A stretch of 64,000 nucleotides of DNA, taken from the IMG/VR virus record IMGVR_UViG_3300021185_003122, positions 16,260 through 80,259 of that record; one strand, written 5' to 3'. The notes beneath the pieces are model-generated. The model did no database searches. It had not been told where the DNA came from and saw only the letters and a list, made by a program, of their open reading frames with translations. This stretch comes from a virus. Within the stretch, counting starts at the first letter, position 1. Each line of letters starts with the position of its first letter. A program made the position numbers and the translations under genes. Below are positions 2,454 through 63,999 of this stretch, piece by piece.

Positions 2454-2512
2454 GATAATAAATAGGTGTTTCTATATAGCGAAATTTTTTCTCGGAAATT
2501 TTCCCGGTATTT

Positions 2513-2544
2513 CTTGTCTATTATACGAAAAGTTCTTATATTAT
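2513..2544 (+). promoter_or_regulatory. Bacteroidetes-type promoter for the plus-strand operon
   Basis: CTTG-N20-TATATTAT, 6 nt before ATG 2551. Confidence 0.6.
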
Positions 2545-2550
2545 TAATAT

Positions 2551-2712
2551 ATGATAAAGTTAGACGTAAACATAGGGGATACAATCCTAATGGGTAAGTT
2601 TAAAAATAAACGAGTTAAAATAAAAACTATAGAGTACGATGAGTTTGGTATGCCTCTCATCAATGGCAAACCTGGTTGTACTTTTAGAATGGTTCCTAAT
2701 CCAAGAAAATGA
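2551..2712 (+). CDS. small hypothetical protein (53 aa)
   Basis: MIKLDVNIGDTILMGKFKNKRVKIKTIEYDEFGMPLINGKPGCTFRMVPNPRK; ATGA overlap with next gene; below ORF-track cutoff. Confidence 0.7.
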   Translation: MIKLDVNIGDTILMGKFKNKRVKIKTIEYDEFGMPLINGKPGCTFRMVPNPRK

Positions 2713-2897
2713 GTCAAAGTTTTATTATTAGTGCTACTGTATTTGTTATCATAATGGTGATCTTCCACATCGTTAAAGATATCTTTCTCTCTACTTACCT
2801 TAGCTCTAGTATGCGCACCAGAGTTAACAGAAGGTGGCTTATAAGTACGGCAATAGGTTTAGTTATACTATATCTTGTATACGGTACTAACTACTAA
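2709..2897 (+). CDS. small membrane protein (2 TM)
   Basis: Two hydrophobic stretches; operon context. Confidence 0.65.
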   Translation: MSQSFIISATVFVIIMVIFHIVKDIFLSTYLSSSMRTRVNRRWLISTAIGLVILYLVYGTNY

Positions 2898-2900
2898 TAT

Positions 2901-3134
2901 ATGAAGAAGCTAATAGAATATATCTTTATAGGTCTTCTTATTATGTTATTTATCTTTGCAGCCTCATGTACTGATGATAATCTAATATGTTCTAAAGGAG
3001 AAGTAAATAATGGTGTTGTATGTGCAGAGATATATCAACCTATAAGAGCACCCGATGGTACTATATACTCTAATTCATGCTATGCAGAAGCAGATGGATG
3101 GGATAATAGCTGTTTAATATTAATCAATATATAA
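2901..3134 (+). CDS. lipoprotein with Kazal-like protease-inhibitor domain
   Basis: Signal peptide plus FAASC; CAEIYQPIRAPDGTIYSNSCYA resembles Kazal CxxxYxPVCGxDGxTYxNxC. Confidence 0.6.
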   Translation: MKKLIEYIFIGLLIMLFIFAASCTDDNLICSKGEVNNGVVCAEIYQPIRAPDGTIYSNSCYAEADGWDNSCLILINI

Positions 3135-3392
3135 ATATATACATATATATAACCTATATCACTAAAAATCATAAGCTAGAGGAAAATGAGACAAGCTCAC
3201 CCGAGCTCCTTACGAGCCCTTTAGGGAACAATACCGGCACTGTTATATCAATGTGACGTCAATATTACAGCAACCGGCTATCATCCCAGACGGAAGTATG
3301 AAAACCGTCCTATGTTTTTTTCTGGTGAGGTAGGAAAGGAATTATATATAAATAAATTAATACCTATATATAATCCTCTCTCTATTATATTA

Positions 3393-3857
3393 TTATTTAA
3401 CCAACCACAATCTATTATTAATATTAATCTTTTCTTTAATTAACATACCACTTCTTCTACACCAATTTTCAAACCTATCATTATAATCATTTACATTCCA
3501 CCTTCCACTTCTAAAATTATATAACAAACCAAATAAATTATTATTATCAAACCTATTCATAAATTCACTTAATAATACCTTTTTATTATCACCAATATAT
3601 TTCTTTAATATATCTTTAAATAATATATCCATATTATTATTCCCATATACCTTTTTATTCTTCACAACAATTACATCATATTTCTTTCTATTCATATAAT
3701 TATAATCCACTTCAACACAACATATATCATTATAACCTTCTAATTCATAATAATCATTCCATTTAACATCTTTAAATTTAACAATATCATTTCTAACATT
3801 ATCAAATTCATAACCTTTTTCAACAAAATAATTTAATACTTTTTCAAATCTTTTCAT
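3393..3857 (-). CDS. hypothetical protein encoded without cytosine (no A/P/T/Q/H)
   Basis: 154-aa ORF, own promoter at 3894-3925, AAAAGT-ATG start. Confidence 0.8.
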   Translation of the reverse strand: MKRFEKVLNYFVEKGYEFDNVRNDIVKFKDVKWNDYYELEGYNDICCVEVDYNYMNRKKYDVIVVKNKKVYGNNNMDILFKDILKKYIGDNKKVLLSEFMNRFDNNNLFGLLYNFRSGRWNVNDYNDRFENWCRRSGMLIKEKININNRLWLVK

Positions 3858-3893
3858 ACTTTTTAATTTTAATTATTATTAATTTTTATACTA

Positions 3894-3925
3894 TAAATAT
3901 ACAATTTTTATTTCAATTTACAAAC
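3894..3925 (-). promoter_or_regulatory. C-free variant of the early promoter
   Basis: GTTTG...ATTGTATATTTA; the C of the usual TTC(T/G)TATATTTA is absent. Confidence 0.7.
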
Positions 3926-3947
3926 TTTTTTAACATTTATTTTTAAA

Positions 3948-4364
3948 TTATTTATCATTTAAATAAATTTCCAAACCATCCATTAAACATTCTTCTTTTC
4001 CACTTATCACAATTCCACCAAATTCTTCCCTATTCTCTCCACACTTAATAAAATTAATCAACAAACTATTCATTTTATTATATTCAATATACCATTCTTC
4101 ACTATCATCACTCATATTCATAACAACAATATTTCTATCATCATTTCTTTCATACCTTCCAAATTCATCAATAATATATTCATACCCTTCATCAATACAT
4201 TCATTTTTAAAATCATTATACCAAATATCAAATATCTTATCATTCAATACAACATCTTCAAAATCTTCTTCACATCTACTTCCAAAATATAATTTAATAT
4301 ATTTTCTTTCAACACCATTTTTTAAAACCTCATTTCTTAATAATTCATTTTTAATCATTTCCAT
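3948..4364 (-). CDS. acidic hypothetical protein encoded without cytosine (no A/P/T/Q/H)
   Basis: 138-aa ORF downstream of promoter 4415-4446. Confidence 0.8.
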   Translation of the reverse strand: MEMIKNELLRNEVLKNGVERKYIKLYFGSRCEEDFEDVVLNDKIFDIWYNDFKNECIDEGYEYIIDEFGRYERNDDRNIVVMNMSDDSEEWYIEYNKMNSLLINFIKCGENREEFGGIVISGKEECLMDGLEIYLNDK

Positions 4365-4414
4365 ACTTTTTAAATTTAAATTAATTAATATAATATTCCC
4401 TTTTTATATTTATA

Positions 4415-4446
4415 TAAAGATAAGAAATAAAATTGTAACTACAAAC
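4415..4446 (-). promoter_or_regulatory. early promoter of the C-free unit
   Basis: GTTTG...TTCTTATCTTTA; the last coding-strand C (4419) lies inside the -7 box. Confidence 0.75.
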
Positions 4447-4465
4447 ATTTTATTAATATATTTGC

Positions 4466-4488
4466 TAATTTATAATCAATATAAATTA
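4466..4488. promoter_or_regulatory. palindromic operator-like site
   Basis: TAATTTATA-N5-TATAAATTA; related copy at 7463-7485 at the same distance from its promoter. Confidence 0.45.
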
Positions 4489-4496
4489 AAAATAAA

Positions 4497-4528
4497 GTTG
4501 GCTATATGAAATCTTATTCGTACATTTA
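4497..4528 (+). promoter_or_regulatory. divergent plus-strand promoter with no convincing gene
   Basis: GTTG-N20-TACATTTA preceded by TTCG. Confidence 0.55.
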
Positions 4529-5527: not shown

Positions 5528-6037
5528 CTATTCAAATAAGCTCAATTGACCAAACTTATTCTCTTTCTCTATCAATTCATAAGCAGCCTGCACTTTAGTA
5601 GTTGGTTTGAATCCATTAGCTCTCCAATCAAATACCTCTCCATCTTTAACAGTTAAAGCATGATTAGCTATCATTACCATATAAGTACCAGTCAAATGAG
5701 AACTAATAAAACTCTTAAGCGTCTTTTTTCTGAAGATCACTTCTCCGTGCAACTTATATCTATTCTTTATCTCTCCTTTTCCTAACACTCTTACAGCAAA
5801 CTCTTTTCCTTCTAATTCAATTCCGGAAGTTTCAGCCATTAACATTTGAGAAACAATATTCATATTATTAGTTCCTCTTTTATTTTCTCTACCAAAAAAA
5901 TCTTTACAGAATTTATGAGCAGTTCTATAAGTAATATCAGCAGCAGATGCAACCGACCTTACAACACAATCATTTTTTTCATTTTTAGCTAAATCCGAAT
6001 CGAAAGAAGCATACTTTTTATTAACAGTTAAATACAT
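5528..6037 (-). CDS. phage protein with NDCVVR...H motif (possible papain-fold)
   Basis: NDCVVRSVA and HALTVKDG motifs; promoter at 6062-6093. Confidence 0.6.
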   Translation of the reverse strand: MYLTVNKKYASFDSDLAKNEKNDCVVRSVASAADITYRTAHKFCKDFFGRENKRGTNNMNIVSQMLMAETSGIELEGKEFAVRVLGKGEIKNRYKLHGEVIFRKKTLKSFISSHLTGTYMVMIANHALTVKDGEVFDWRANGFKPTTKVQAAYELIEKENKFGQLSLFE

Positions 6038-6061
6038 ATCTTTTTATTTTTTTATTATACC

Positions 6062-6093
6062 TTAATATACGAACTTTATATCAAACCGCCAAC
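6062..6093 (-). promoter_or_regulatory. early promoter
   Basis: GTTG-N20-TATATTAA. Confidence 0.7.
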
Positions 6094-6488
6094 TGTTCCA
6101 CTAACTTTTTTCCGTAATTATTTAAATTAGTTTTCTTATCCAGAAAGTACTTAACTTCATCCCAACCATTCTCTAGCGTTCTTAAGGAGAAATATTTAGA
6201 GTTAGGTTTAGTAGGTTGCTCTAACCAGTCAATAGGATAAGGAATATACTTATCAGATTCCCAAAACTTAATCCGTTTCATCTTACCATCATCAGATGGA
6301 GTATTATGAGATAAGAATTGATCTACATTCCAGTCTACTAATGCTTCAAAATCTGCTTCCGGATCTCCAATATCATTCCAATCAAACAATACTGAATCTA
6401 TTAACACATCTACATCATACTCATTTACATCCGCTTCATTCCTTACGAATGCTTTTACAATATAATCTTTTACATAACTTCTATCCAT
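6081..6488 (-). CDS. hypothetical protein
   Basis: Track ORF 6081-6524; start more likely ATG 6488, just after the upstream stop. Confidence 0.6.
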   Translation of the reverse strand: MDRSYVKDYIVKAFVRNEADVNEYDVDVLIDSVLFDWNDIGDPEADFEALVDWNVDQFLSHNTPSDDGKMKRIKFWESDKYIPYPIDWLEQPTKPNSKYFSLRTLENGWDEVKYFLDKKTNLNNYGKKLVEQLAV

Positions 6489-6489
6489 A

Positions 6490-6801
6490 TTATTCTTCAT
6501 ATAATTCATTACCGTTAACATCAAAATGATAACTATATCCTCCTTGCGAATCTCTAATATCTAATTTACAAGCAACATTCTCAAACGGAACATTCTTATC
6601 ATCCTCTATACTAAAGAAAGATTCATCTACATTCCAATCTCCTTCTTCATACTCTTTCCTTATCATATCATTATCATACAATCCAATAATCATTCCTCCA
6701 TCAGCATATTCAAACTCATCATGCATTCTGAATTTCAAATCACCAATACTAATACTTTCAATTCTTTCTTTACTACTTTTTTCTACAACAACATTTTTCA
6801 T
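6490..6801 (-). CDS. acidic hypothetical protein, C-poor coding sequence
   Basis: 103-aa ORF, promoter at 6824-6855. Confidence 0.7.
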   Translation of the reverse strand: MKNVVVEKSSKERIESISIGDLKFRMHDEFEYADGGMIIGLYDNDMIRKEYEEGDWNVDESFFSIEDDKNVPFENVACKLDIRDSQGGYSYHFDVNGNELYEE

Positions 6802-6823
6802 ATCTTTTATCTTTTTATTTACC

Positions 6824-6855
6824 TAAATATACGATTTTTATTTCGACTTACAAAC
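6824..6855 (-). promoter_or_regulatory. early promoter
   Basis: GTTTGTA...ATCGTATATTTA. Confidence 0.7.
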
Positions 6856-7137
6856 TTATTTAGTAATTATTTCAATAAATCTTCCCCACTCTTTATTATA
6901 ATCCTCAATCAAATCATAAGCACAATCATCATCCATACTGAAGAGAATATCAAACATCTCATCATCATTCTCACCTGCATAAAATGCTGGTCTGTCTTCA
7001 AATGCTTCTGAAACTTTATCAAACGTTTCCTTATCAACATTTTCTAAAATCTTTACATCTTCCGCATCATCCCCCCAAAAGAGAGCAGTATTAGCTTTTA
7101 ACTTTAAATCTTTAATAACTTTTCTTGAATCTGTCAT
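6856..7137 (-). CDS. acidic hypothetical protein
   Basis: 93-aa ORF, promoter at 7171-7202. Confidence 0.7.
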   Translation of the reverse strand: MTDSRKVIKDLKLKANTALFWGDDAEDVKILENVDKETFDKVSEAFEDRPAFYAGENDDEMFDILFSMDDDCAYDLIEDYNKEWGRFIEIITK

Positions 7138-7194
7138 AACCTTTATTTTTTATCTTTTAATTATTATACCTAAATATATGATTCTTTTATCGAA

Positions 7195-7389
7195 CTAGCA
7201 ACTTTCTTTTAAGTTATTTTTAAAAACTTTTGAATCGAAAAATAAATGACCAGCCAAATCTTCAGTATTATTAATACCAGCTTCTTCTGCTTCTAATACA
7301 ATTAAATTCTTTTCATCTTCAGTTAACCAATCAATCAAGTTAATTTTTAAAATTTCCTCTAAACCTTTTTTAAATTCTAATAATATCAT
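7195..7389 (-). CDS. hypothetical protein
   Basis: 64-aa ORF, promoter at 7412-7443. Confidence 0.65.
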   Translation of the reverse strand: MILLEFKKGLEEILKINLIDWLTEDEKNLIVLEAEEAGINNTEDLAGHLFFDSKVFKNNLKESC

Positions 7390-7511
7390 ATCTTTTAATT
7401 TTAATTACACCTTAATTTACGATTACTATTTCGACTTACAAACTTTTTTTACATTTATTTTTTAATTTATACTCATTCTAAATAAACCAATTTCCGGAAA
7501 GAAAGAGGTAC

Positions 7512-7541
7512 AAAAAAGAAAAAGGGAGCAAAAAGCTCCCC
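7512..7541 (-). terminator. intrinsic terminator
   Basis: GGGAGC-TTTTT-GCTCCC hairpin followed by a T-rich tract on the minus strand. Confidence 0.7.
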
Positions 7542-7658
7542 AATTCCATAATTAAAAAATAAAAGTATGTAGCAGTATGAAGATGGGTACTGCAAAACCC
7601 AATACTATTGTAGCAACAGTTGAAAACTTATCTATCCAATTTATAAATTTATCTTCCA

Positions 7659-8459
7659 TTATGCTATTCTATTTTTATTAACTCTTAAGAATGATTCTAC
7701 ATTATCAAATCTTATCATCTCAACATTTTGAGTTCTAAAAGTAAAATTATCTGAATCCCAATTCTTATATCGAGTTGTAATTTCTAAATCAACTGACTTT
7801 CCGGACGCACTTTTTCGAATACCTTTCAATTTACAAACATCTGAAATTCTCCAGTTATATTTAAGTTGAAGTTGAGGTAAGTAATTATCATCTTTATCAG
7901 AAGACAACTCAATTCCATTATCAGCAAATAACTTCTCTACTAAAGCTTCTGATTCCAGCTCTTTAATATCATCTTCTTGACTTCTAACAGACTTTCTTAT
8001 CTCTCTTCCTGATTCATAAAACGTATTCATTAACTTATTATACTTTACGGAATTGGAATTGAATTCAGCAATTATATCATCTTCAAAATCTACAACCAAT
8101 TGACTGAAATAAGTTAACATTTTATATCTCTTAATAACACTTTCATCCATTTTTTCAGGTCTGAAAGAACCAGTCGACATTTCTATTCTGCTAAACTTTT
8201 CTCCAACTTCTGTTTCCCAATTATGATGCAAGTAAAAATCTACTACTCCCCAATTAGAATCGGTATTAGTAATACTTACTCTTTCTCTTCCTATATTTAA
8301 TACGAACCCTTCATAAGAAGTTCCAAAATACTTTTCCAGAATTAACTTCTGTTGATTTTGCATTCTATTGCGCAACATATTAGTTCTTAATTCTAATACA
8401 TTTTGCTCTTTATAAAGTTGATCTAACCTTAAATTTAAAATTTCTACTCTTTTTGACAT
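7659..8459 (-). CDS. hypothetical protein
   Basis: 266-aa ORF, promoter at 8484-8515. Confidence 0.75.
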   Translation of the reverse strand: MSKRVEILNLRLDQLYKEQNVLELRTNMLRNRMQNQQKLILEKYFGTSYEGFVLNIGRERVSITNTDSNWGVVDFYLHHNWETEVGEKFSRIEMSTGSFRPEKMDESVIKRYKMLTYFSQLVVDFEDDIIAEFNSNSVKYNKLMNTFYESGREIRKSVRSQEDDIKELESEALVEKLFADNGIELSSDKDDNYLPQLQLKYNWRISDVCKLKGIRKSASGKSVDLEITTRYKNWDSDNFTFRTQNVEMIRFDNVESFLRVNKNRIA

Positions 8460-8502
8460 ATCTTTTATTTTTTTAATTATACCTTAATATAAGAACTAAT
8501 AA

Positions 8503-8892
8503 TCAAAAAGGCAACTTATTTTCGACTTTTTTTATCTCTTCTTCTATAAACTCAACAAAATCGCCAGCATAATCTTTTCCTCCAATATGCCATCTACTTC
8601 CAAATACAGATTTAGCTTCTTCTAAACTCCCAACTTCATTTCTAGCAAATTCAGGAGATTCAGACTTCCAATCATATATAGTAAATAACTGAATACCGTT
8701 TTCTTCAGTTTCAAACTCTACTACCCATTCATACATTACTTTACCATCACCACTATTTTCAGGTCCATAAGTCGGGTTGCCAAAATAATCTACTAAATCA
8801 TTATAAGTAATACCGTAACTTAATTTACTTTTTAAAGACGTTCCTGCAGTTTCAGGAGCATCCATTTCATCATAAGTTGTAATTTTTGTCAT
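8503..8892 (-). CDS. hypothetical phage protein
   Basis: 129 aa, DGKV..EW..FTIYDWK..WHIGG motifs; promoter at 8918-8949. Confidence 0.75.
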   Translation of the reverse strand: MTKITTYDEMDAPETAGTSLKSKLSYGITYNDLVDYFGNPTYGPENSGDGKVMYEWVVEFETEENGIQLFTIYDWKSESPEFARNEVGSLEEAKSVFGSRWHIGGKDYAGDFVEFIEEEIKKVENKLPF

Positions 8893-17699: not shown

Positions 17700-18541
17700 T
17701 ATACTAATGCTGTAGCTAACTTAAACAACTCTTTATTTACTTTCATATCCTTCTCAAAGGATTTGATCTTTCTAACCTTTCTAACTTTAGCACCTCTCAA
17801 TGCAGCATGAAACTCTCCTTGAGTAATCTTCTCTTGAACTACATTGAAGACTCTCCAAAGGTCATCTCCTTTATCAGCATCTCTTTTAGGGTCTAAAATA
17901 TCTTCTATAGTTTCAGCATCATAATCAAACTTGGTAGCTTCTTCACTGCCTGGAGTAATATTAGCTCTAATTAACATAGCATCTAAAGCTAGTTTATTCT
18001 TCTCTTCTTGAGTAAGAACTCTATCCTTCATATCATTCATAACCTTAACCTTATTAGGAAGATCAGCTACAGCTTGATTGACTACGCCTCTCAACTCATC
18101 AAACGTATAACCTTTATGCTTAATCTTAAAGTCACTAAACTGTTCATCAGCAACAACTAAACCATTAGAACATACTAATCTAAATATACCAACGCTAAAC
18201 TTAAACGCTTGCATACCATCATGAGAGTTAGTCATAATAATTCTAGGAAAAGAATCATCACCGTCACTACCTTTAATTTTAATCTCAGGGTTCTGGAAAG
18301 CAATCATATGCTTACTAAATATAGTACCATTACCTCTGCCTTTTCTTTGAGCAGCTTGAACCGGTTTCCAACCTAACTTATCTAAATCATCTATAATCGT
18401 TTCAGTATTAACGAATAGATATCTTTTACTAACATCTGGGTTAGTAGGAGCCTCAGCGAACGCTAGAGGACAAACTTCTTTTAATTGTTCCTTACTCATA
18501 TAATCTTGAGCACTATTGAAACTTAACATAACATCTGACAT
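17699..18541 (-). CDS. DUF932/DUF945 family protein
   Basis: NSHDG...FRLVCSNG...LWRVFNVVQE; promoter at 18565-18596. Confidence 0.85.
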   Translation of the reverse strand: MSDVMLSFNSAQDYMSKEQLKEVCPLAFAEAPTNPDVSKRYLFVNTETIIDDLDKLGWKPVQAAQRKGRGNGTIFSKHMIAFQNPEIKIKGSDGDDSFPRIIMTNSHDGMQAFKFSVGIFRLVCSNGLVVADEQFSDFKIKHKGYTFDELRGVVNQAVADLPNKVKVMNDMKDRVLTQEEKNKLALDAMLIRANITPGSEEATKFDYDAETIEDILDPKRDADKGDDLWRVFNVVQEKITQGEFHAALRGAKVRKVRKIKSFEKDMKVNKELFKLATALV

Positions 18542-59744: not shown

Positions 59745-59878
59745 TAATCTTGTTTACCAACTGCAGTAAAAGCTATTTTAAAAAGCGCGAGTATTCTCTT
59801 CCATAACGGAAGTTTTTCATTCTCGAACTGCTTTTTAGCATCTCTTCTTTTTGCTTGTTTTGTTTTGAATATGTTCAT
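59744..59878 (-). CDS. small basic protein (44 aa)
   Basis: MNIFKTKQAKRRDAKKQF...; TAATG coupling to apt. Confidence 0.55.
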   Translation of the reverse strand: MNIFKTKQAKRRDAKKQFENEKLPLWKRILALFKIAFTAVGKQD

Positions 59879-59916
59879 ATTAATAAATATAAGAAAAATA
59901 ACTAATGAATCCTAAT

Positions 59917-60684: not shown

Positions 60685-60696
60685 ATAAATAAATAT

Positions 60697-63516: not shown

Positions 63517-63999
63517 CTAATGCCCTTCTCTCCAGTTATCAGCTATCTCTGGAGGTGCTTTTAAAGTAACTCCGGGTAGTTTAGTTGTGTTTTCCATAAT
63601 CTCTTGTACATAAGGTGCAAACGTTTCTGCATCCTTTTCATCAATATTAATAATCAACTGGTCATGTACTTGAGCTTGAACTATAGCATCTATACCTAAT
63701 TCTTTAGCCTTCAAGTTAATCTTTAAAGCTGCTCTATTTACTACAGCAGCAGCTAATGACTGAAGCTGGAAGTTAAGACAGTTATTGAGTCCGTTACGAT
63801 AGTCTCTATAAGCTTGAGTAACTTGATCTCTAGGAGAAATAGTCTTAACTATCTCCCCATCTTTCTTAACATACTTAGGAGGTATCTGAGATTCTAGCTC
63901 TTTACGGAATCTCCAATCCATCATTCTATCACCAACCTTACTATAAAGCTTCTGAACTTTAGGTAAATGACGTACTCTACCGACATGGTTTTCAATCTG
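63517..63999 (-). CDS. polA: family A DNA polymerase, C-terminal part
   Basis: GRVRH, NFQLQSLAA, QVHDQL (motif C); open to the window end. Confidence 0.85.
   Translation of the reverse strand, partial: QIENHVGRVRHLPKVQKLYSKVGDRMMDWRFRKELESQIPPKYVKKDGEIVKTISPRDQVTQAYRDYRNGLNNCLNFQLQSLAAAVVNRAALKINLKAKELGIDAIVQAQVHDQLIINIDEKDAETFAPYVQEIMENTTKLPGVTLKAPPEIADNWREGH

Follow-up and report, generated by a model that had tools for sequence, protein, structure and literature searches.

The window, i.e., the whole stretch of 64,000 nucleotides that was analyzed, belongs to an uncultured marine phage of flavobacteria, whose GroEL is 65% identical to that of the Flavobacterium phage immuto. Over some 54 kb (39.8 to 93.4 kb), the contig has the same gene order as immuto. 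A preliminary description had reported a zone without cytosine in this DNA, and the zone is real: the longest G-free run on the plus strand extends from position 3340 to 4418 and comprises 1079 nt, whereas the runner-up in the 64 kb is only 102 nt long. The minus strand is the coding strand for nearly all genes, and the zone therefore represents a coding strand without C. It spans two open reading frames, ORF1 (3948-4364, minus strand) and ORF2 (3393-3857, minus strand), together with the leader, a 90-nt spacer and 53 nt past the last stop codon. In the 80-kb record, most genes outside the zone have 12-16% C on the coding strand, while the proportion is reduced to 5.6-10% in the genes located directly upstream of the zone (5528-8892, minus strand); this partial depletion looks like a graded form of the same pressure.

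ORF1 encodes an acidic protein of 138 amino acids and is a member of a family that includes gp143 of immuto, and ORF2 encodes a protein of 154 amino acids with a conserved WCRRSG motif and homologs in marine metagenomes. Both proteins consist of 15 amino acids only: proline, histidine, glutamine, threonine and alanine, which make up 20% of ordinary proteins, are found in none of the 292 residues of ORF1 and ORF2, and the C-free genes use 27 of the 64 codons (24 sense and 3 stop codons). No match to either protein was found in Pfam or PHROG or by tblastn among 50,697 phage records, and the AlphaFold2 models had no Foldseek match in the PDB. The models reached pLDDT values of 88 for ORF1 and 78 for ORF2, and with these values the C-free proteins provide working examples of folded proteins made from 15 amino acids. 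There are 177 homologs of ORF2 in marine metagenomes and 50 homologs of ORF1, and all five amino acids are missing from 116 of the 120 ORF2 homologs among those listed. Full-text literature searches aimed at natural C-free genes yielded no description of such genes. A protein-coding unit of natural origin that dispenses with one base, and thus with five amino acids, represents a sequence constraint of a new kind.

The upstream promoter of the zone is composed of the -33 element TTTG (4442-4445, minus strand) and the -7 box TATCTTTA (4415-4422, minus strand), which are separated by 19 nt, the same spacing as in other copies and in the relatives. It had been claimed that this promoter keeps its Cs and that the last of them lies in the -7 box, and this could be read directly from the minus strand: positions 4426-4415 are TTCTTATCTTTA, with Cs at 4424 and 4419, and 4419 is the last C ahead of the zone. 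The internal promoter (3894-3924, minus strand) has the same geometry, with TTTG at 3924-3921, a 19-nt spacer and the box TATATTTA at 3901-3894; positions 3905-3894 of the minus strand read ATTGTATATTTA, and the promoter contains no C. In the start-site map of Flavobacterium psychrophilum, the box TAnnTTTG is found at -12 to -5, and a variant termed SM5, TAnnTTGY, has a pyrimidine at -5 (PMC9723704). Since the box occupies -12 to -5 in this published map (PMC9723704), transcription of the first C-free cistron is predicted to start 5 nt after the box end, at or near the A at position 4410 (minus strand), which falls within the range of 4405-4412 expected in the preliminary description and puts the last upstream C (4419) at about -9; the start of the internal promoter is predicted at around 3889.

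Both promoters are copies of a motif that is used throughout the phage. The motif TTNKTATMTTTA was observed 16 times in the window compared to 1.8 expected copies, 14 of the 16 copies are located on the minus strand, and these mostly sit just ahead of start codons. Each copy is part of a Bacteroidota-type promoter (TTTG or GTTG, 19 nt, TAT(A/C)TTTA), and the last box base is A rather than the G of TAnnTTTG in all 14 minus-strand copies. The C at motif position 3 (the C of TTC) is present in 12 of these 14 copies, the two without it being those at 18181, which lies within an ORF, and at 60690. Downstream of the other 13 boxes, the first C follows after 4-41 nt, compared to 1076 nt downstream of the box at 4415. 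Ordinary promoters often have a C right after the box (tgtC in the window, GGTATC in immuto), whereas the C-free genes have A, G or T at these places. At 59876-59895 of the window (minus strand), the box TTCTTATATTTA is followed by an ATG after 5 nt; with the box at -12 to -5, a message starting from this promoter would be leaderless.

Scans of viral and metagenome contigs identified 73 loci. The C-free zone is present in every distinct related locus whose contig allows its detection and in all 68 related marine loci; complete zones in the relatives have a length of 1.0-1.93 kb and contain 2-4 small genes. Approximately 61 kb of distinct zone sequence contain two stray Cs outside promoter windows. 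The preliminary description had proposed that the boundaries of the zone track transcription, and the comparison of boundaries in homologous loci had been set beforehand as a refuting test. In this comparison, in which only C-free runs of at least 120 nt were counted, 46 of 49 distinct run starts were promoter-bound, at offset -1, 0, +4 or +8 of the -7 box, and the proposal withstood the test. The edge has the forms TTC/TTATATTTA, C/TATATTTA, TATC/TTTA and TATATTGC/ (the slash marks the edge), the last of which fits the published TAnnTTGY (PMC9723704). With the box set at -12 to -5, the last C before the start codon is found at -15, -14, -13, -9 or -5. One outlier record has its last C at +82 in start-site coordinates, and it is suspected that the box was mis-picked in this record or that it contains tandem promoters. 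The leaders of the C-free genes contain no C in about 2900 nt, compared to 3.2% in ordinary leaders of the same genomes, and at positions -4 to -1, C occurs in 0 of 284 cases in promoters of C-free genes versus 7 of 272 in ordinary promoters. Furthermore, the edge precedes three gene families and uses three box types and is therefore not a single inherited junction.

Several other features of the related loci were observed. A second box type, CCCTATATTGC or CCCTATATTAAGG, drives the C-free genes in some relatives (L006:1-30, L036, L039, L041, L058 and L065) and is internal in L003, L016 and L021; it matches the SM5 motif TAnnTTGY (PMC9723704) and, judged by this resemblance, may be read by another sigma factor. 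Tandem promoters are located ahead of the first C-free gene in L014 (230-480) and L029 (1440-1690), where the upstream promoter contains Cs and the second one, about 95 nt further on, does not. Many metagenome contigs start or end inside the zone (L002-L005, L007, L008, L010, L016, L018, L020 and others), which suggests either assembly breaks at a variable cassette of low complexity or a real genome end nearby.

The relatives also reveal what happens between two C-free genes. A C at -16 to -5 is kept in 68 of 68 ordinary promoters and in 18 of 20 promoters that are the first in a zone, but only in 13 of 51 internal promoters (Fisher's exact test for internal promoters, 1e-6 against first-in-zone and 3e-20 against ordinary promoters). 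It had been stated that the internal promoter, which is itself transcribed, has lost its C. This is true for the box at 3901-3894 of the window; in the relatives, however, the loss is a tendency only, with the mentioned 13 of 51 internal promoters keeping a C. The retained Cs are found at the usual box positions, e.g., CCC-TATATTAAGG or CTTATC-TTTA. Thus, C is tolerated from the stop codon of one cistron to the start site of the next, while it never occurs between a box and the next stop codon, apart from a few exceptions: a C in the leader of L035, a C in the -33 flank of L015 and, in coding sequence, an alanine codon in L056 and an alanine codon three codons before the stop codon in L001. 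As a quarter of the internal promoters of the relatives contain a C, the constraint applies to each cistron, from the start site to past the stop codon, rather than to one unbroken block.

At its 3' edge, the zone runs into a conserved hairpin (3331-3384, minus strand), in which a 5' arm rich in G is followed by an AU core, a loop and the descending arm. Beyond the zone, the first Cs (from 3339 onward) pair with the G run of the 5' arm, and the zone ends in the descending arm at 29 distinct sites. The minimum free energy of the hairpin is -21.1 kcal/mol in the window and ranges from -16 to -24.5 kcal/mol in all 29 homologous sites. The mean free energy of the native sequences is -20.6 kcal/mol, compared to -17.7 kcal/mol for chimeras with halves swapped between loci, -12.9 kcal/mol for the opposite strand and -12.4 kcal/mol for hairpins cut before the first C. 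Each hairpin contains around three G.U pairs, and the alignment pair 29-66 has changed on both sides. Strand-specific stability, G.U pairs and covariation together identify the hairpin as a fold of the RNA that has the coding-strand sequence. A clear U tract is missing from it; CCTTTCC follows in the window, and AATTTT precedes in some relatives. Downstream of the hairpin, a conserved GC-rich structured block of about 150 nt (3176-3339, minus strand) is shared by at least 19 loci. Covariation is seen in its stems (GACGG/CCGTC, GCCGG/CCGGC and GGCCG/CGGCC), and the block is flanked by TATATA-rich motifs and contains a canonical terminator-like site (3208-3193, minus strand). This block may represent a 3' UTR with secondary structure, a small RNA or a site that acts as DNA; no Rfam family was found within positions 3050-4500 of the window.

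RNA libraries from several marine studies contain contigs of the zone. Four runs yielded contigs over positions 3341-4385 and none over 2500-3331, in a set of runs chosen for containing the zone and from assembled contigs, which cannot show transcript ends. One RNA contig of a relative reads through the hairpin. Pieces of the zone are also contained in marine libraries prepared by oligo-dT selection (runs X2, X3, X8 and X9), and the A-rich C-free message may have been captured through internal A runs.

How is this composition maintained? At synonymous NNY sites, C is found in 0 of 135 cases in ORF1 and ORF2, compared to 25.4% in ordinary genes. C is replaced by A, T and G in the C-free genes, and none of the seven Cs in coding sequence (in L001, in L056 and five in immuto gp143) occupies a third codon position. 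The preliminary description had favored selection on the transcript or the transcribed template over a regional mutation bias, and the complete lack of C at NNY sites, the two Cs in around 61 kb and the five missing amino acids bear this out. Since the boundaries coincide with the -7 box and an RNA hairpin, the pressure acts on the transcript or on the transcribed template strand. The C-free stretch therefore very probably consists of transcription units, in which purifying selection excludes C from each cistron individually, from the -7 box of the promoter to the hairpin. C appears to be tolerated only upstream of about -4 from the predicted start, in or just 5' of a sigma-A-type -7 box. The C-free constraint is held by selection across dozens of diverged marine phages, and the boundary findings reduce the candidates for its cause to a small number of hazards that can be tested.

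C is avoided regardless of its sequence context, as every C is gone, and the avoidance starts at the predicted start site; both observations point to a hazard of the polymerization step, which would act at each template G or incoming C. We consider the chances that the cause belongs to this class to be about even. During early infection, host RNA polymerase may fail wherever a template G is read and a C is added. The few genes needed under this condition would then be written without such positions, and the C-free proteins would be the first responders, which enable the rest of the phage program. However, the conserved pairing of the first Cs of the hairpin implies that these Cs are transcribed at least sometimes.

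Such a hazard could lie in the template. The infecting DNA might carry a bulky 7-deazaguanine in place of G, and a G-free template would never present the modified base to the polymerase. By itself this is a possible rather than a probable cause, but it is the leading candidate of this class because of the kinship with immuto: in the DNA of this phage, which is collinear with the contig, every G is replaced by fdPreQ1 via DpdA3 (PMC10516641). The ORF1-family gene of immuto, gp143 (around 68.29-68.72 kb), has a C content of 1.4% and the edge TTCTTATC/TTTA, as in the zone; its assignment to the family is based on inspection and the FGSR motif. Moreover, bacterial RNA polymerases are inhibited in vitro when 7-deazaguanine carries bulky groups at position 7; this block, however, looked like an effect on initiation or the promoter, as no short transcripts were formed (PMC4838386). 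Further observations speak against modified G: immuto has a single nearly C-free gene, which still contains 5 Cs, and its other early genes contain about 10% C; the promoters of the zone keep the G of the -33 element; and phages CP220 and phiST replace all G, yet have no gene-length C-free run.

The genes for such a modification would be expected beyond the end of the contig if the order of genes is as in immuto, where a cluster of DpdA3, DpdN, QueC/D/E/F and FolE is located directly upstream of polA. The record is about 45% complete and ends inside its family A DNA polymerase gene (polA, 63517-63999), which matches immuto gp199, and thereby stops short of the place where immuto has the modification cluster. 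Tblastn with the Que and DpdA proteins of immuto found none of them in the contig, while the polA and GroEL controls matched the contig end. The Pfam families TGT, QueC and FolE had no match in the contig and five viral records, all of which are fragments. However, DpdA3 goes undetected by the Pfam TGT model PF01702 in immuto (W01), CP220 (W02) and phiST (W03), all known to encode it, and negative Pfam screens of phage contigs for DNA guanine transglycosylase are therefore uninformative. In a small sample of other phages, no gene-length C-free run was found, neither in CP220, phiST and Youna2, the latter having only a weak DpdA3 match, nor in the Bacteroidota phages DAC20, Calle_1 and elemoE, which lack DpdA3. 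The genome of the Bacteroides phage DAC20 has 8.7% C on its plus strand, and a stretch of 419 nt (L101:10827-11245) has at most 6 Cs per 300-nt window and includes a C-free run of 153 nt; this stretch may be a weak counterpart of the zone, here from a gut phage.

Alternatively, the hazard could lie in the incoming nucleotide, either because chain-terminating ddhCTP is produced by prokaryotic viperins or because CTP is in short supply. Bernheim et al. reportedly found in 2021 that prokaryotic viperins make ddhCTP. This second version would fit the pattern equally well but is doubtful, and the host is not known to have a viperin or a CTP-depleting system.

The main rival of a polymerization hazard is immunity at the RNA level. 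According to this explanation, an endoribonuclease of the host or the phage, which needs single-stranded C, destroys the ordinary early messages, while the C-free messages survive and encode the antidote; candidates are toxins of the MazF/PemK, ChpBK or MqsR type as well as some HEPN or CRISPR-associated RNases. A C-dependent RNase predicts the same boundaries and best accounts for the pairing of the first Cs past the zone, which are enclosed in a hairpin whose stability is confined to the RNA-like strand. It would also fit the quarter of internal promoters in which a C is kept between cistrons, where cuts would be harmless, and the small and acidic ORF1, which resembles many inhibitor proteins in these properties. 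ACA-less messages are said to escape MazF, a finding attributed to Suzuki et al. in 2005. However, the known toxins read motifs, so that it would suffice to avoid these motifs, and the loss of every C would be excessive unless many nucleases are faced; we know of no bacterial RNase that is purely C-specific. Nor does this explanation account for the link to a G-modifying lineage, and it does not predict the apparent purge of C at the untranscribed positions -4 to -1. All in all, a C-dependent RNase is rather unlikely to be the cause.

The remaining explanations are far less plausible. At the level of translation, the phage might avoid certain codons or tRNAs, for instance in response to tRNA cleavage, or might require an unstructured mRNA for initiation of the Bacteroidota type. 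The restriction to 15 amino acids and 27 codons would be in line with this idea, as would the weak structure of C-free RNA, which cannot form G-C pairs. However, C is equally absent from untranslated sequence, namely from spacers, 3' UTRs and the roughly 2900 nt of leader, which rejects codon or tRNA usage as the sole cause; in addition, lysine, asparagine, aspartate and tyrosine, the targets of known anticodon nucleases, are heavily used, and a low degree of structure does not need zero C. A cause at the level of translation is therefore very improbable. Avoidance of restriction or other sites in the DNA, by which the first-expressed genes would be shielded, is at least as hard to believe. 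While the zone is, by its composition, free of any site that combines G and C on one strand, the edge matches the -7 box and no DNA landmark, and these promoter-bound edges rule out site avoidance as the sole cause; furthermore, the internal promoter Cs of the relatives create sites such as GAATTC (L003), the phage would not survive cuts made outside the zone, and the 3' structure is strand-specific and RNA-like. Finally, a transcription-associated mutation bias, in which C is deaminated to U on the exposed non-template strand and no selection is involved, would likewise leave edges where transcription starts and ends and could explain the partly C-depleted neighboring early genes, but it is barely credible and ruled out as the sole cause by 0 of 135 Cs at NNY sites and two Cs in about 61 kb among lineages with down to 43% protein identity, which would require almost no fixation of T-to-C changes, and it is at odds with the surrender of five amino acids, the replacement of C by A, T and G instead of T alone, the lack of third-position Cs among the seven coding Cs and the G.U pairs that stand in place of G-C pairs in the hairpin.

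The C-free proteins are probably the first tools that the phage directs against its host. It is quite conceivable, though somewhat short of an even bet, that the zone represents a general viral strategy, in which a few first-expressed genes for counter-defense or take-over are written in three letters, so that the weapon cannot read the antidote. If this is true, transcription or the message would be insensitive to whatever targets C in the RNA or G in the template, and the weapons covered would include modified parental DNA, base-excising or chain-terminating defenses and C-dependent RNases; promoters and terminator hairpins would set the limits of the three-letter text. A cultured entry point is available with immuto and its host, Flavobacterium sp. 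LMO8, as this phage has a nearly C-free homolog, gp143, whose promoter edge is the same.

The zone shares individual traits with several known systems. Its promoters have the box, the -33 element, the fixed 19-nt spacing and the placement ahead of short A-rich leaders in common with the sigma-A promoters of Bacteroidota (-33 TTTG, -7 TAnnTTTG); unlike other promoters of this type, they border a stretch that is wholly without C. The 7-deazaguanine phages with DpdA3 (immuto with fdPreQ1, phiST with dDG and CP220 with dADG; PMC10516641) display a peculiarity of G in the same lineage, but the modification has not been linked to gene composition in the literature, and CP220 and phiST have no C-free genes. 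The PeSL cassettes of T4-type phages contain, as here, small early genes of unassigned function with their own repeated promoters, and they are not described as lacking a base in the available parts of the two reports (PMC2839356, PMC4122927). Similar to these cassettes, the number of C-free genes varies from 2 to 4 among the relatives, and promoter-like sites precede both ORFs here and most C-free ORFs in the relatives. According to the same parts of these reports, a stem-loop follows each ORF of a PeSL cassette, whereas there is none between ORF1 and ORF2, and the hairpin is found only at the end of the unit. With viperin-derived ddhCTP and with MazF and ACA-less messages, the zone would share the principle that C in the message is the point of attack and that a message without C is immune; to our knowledge, no natural message that escapes by lacking all C has been described. 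A further parallel is synthetic: G-less and C-less cassettes for in vitro transcription, reportedly introduced by Sawadogo and Roeder in 1985, allow RNA to be made without one NTP, and this RNA ends at the first position that needs the missing NTP. These cassettes, however, are non-coding laboratory constructs, whereas the zone is natural, protein-coding and conserved in around 60 distinct loci.
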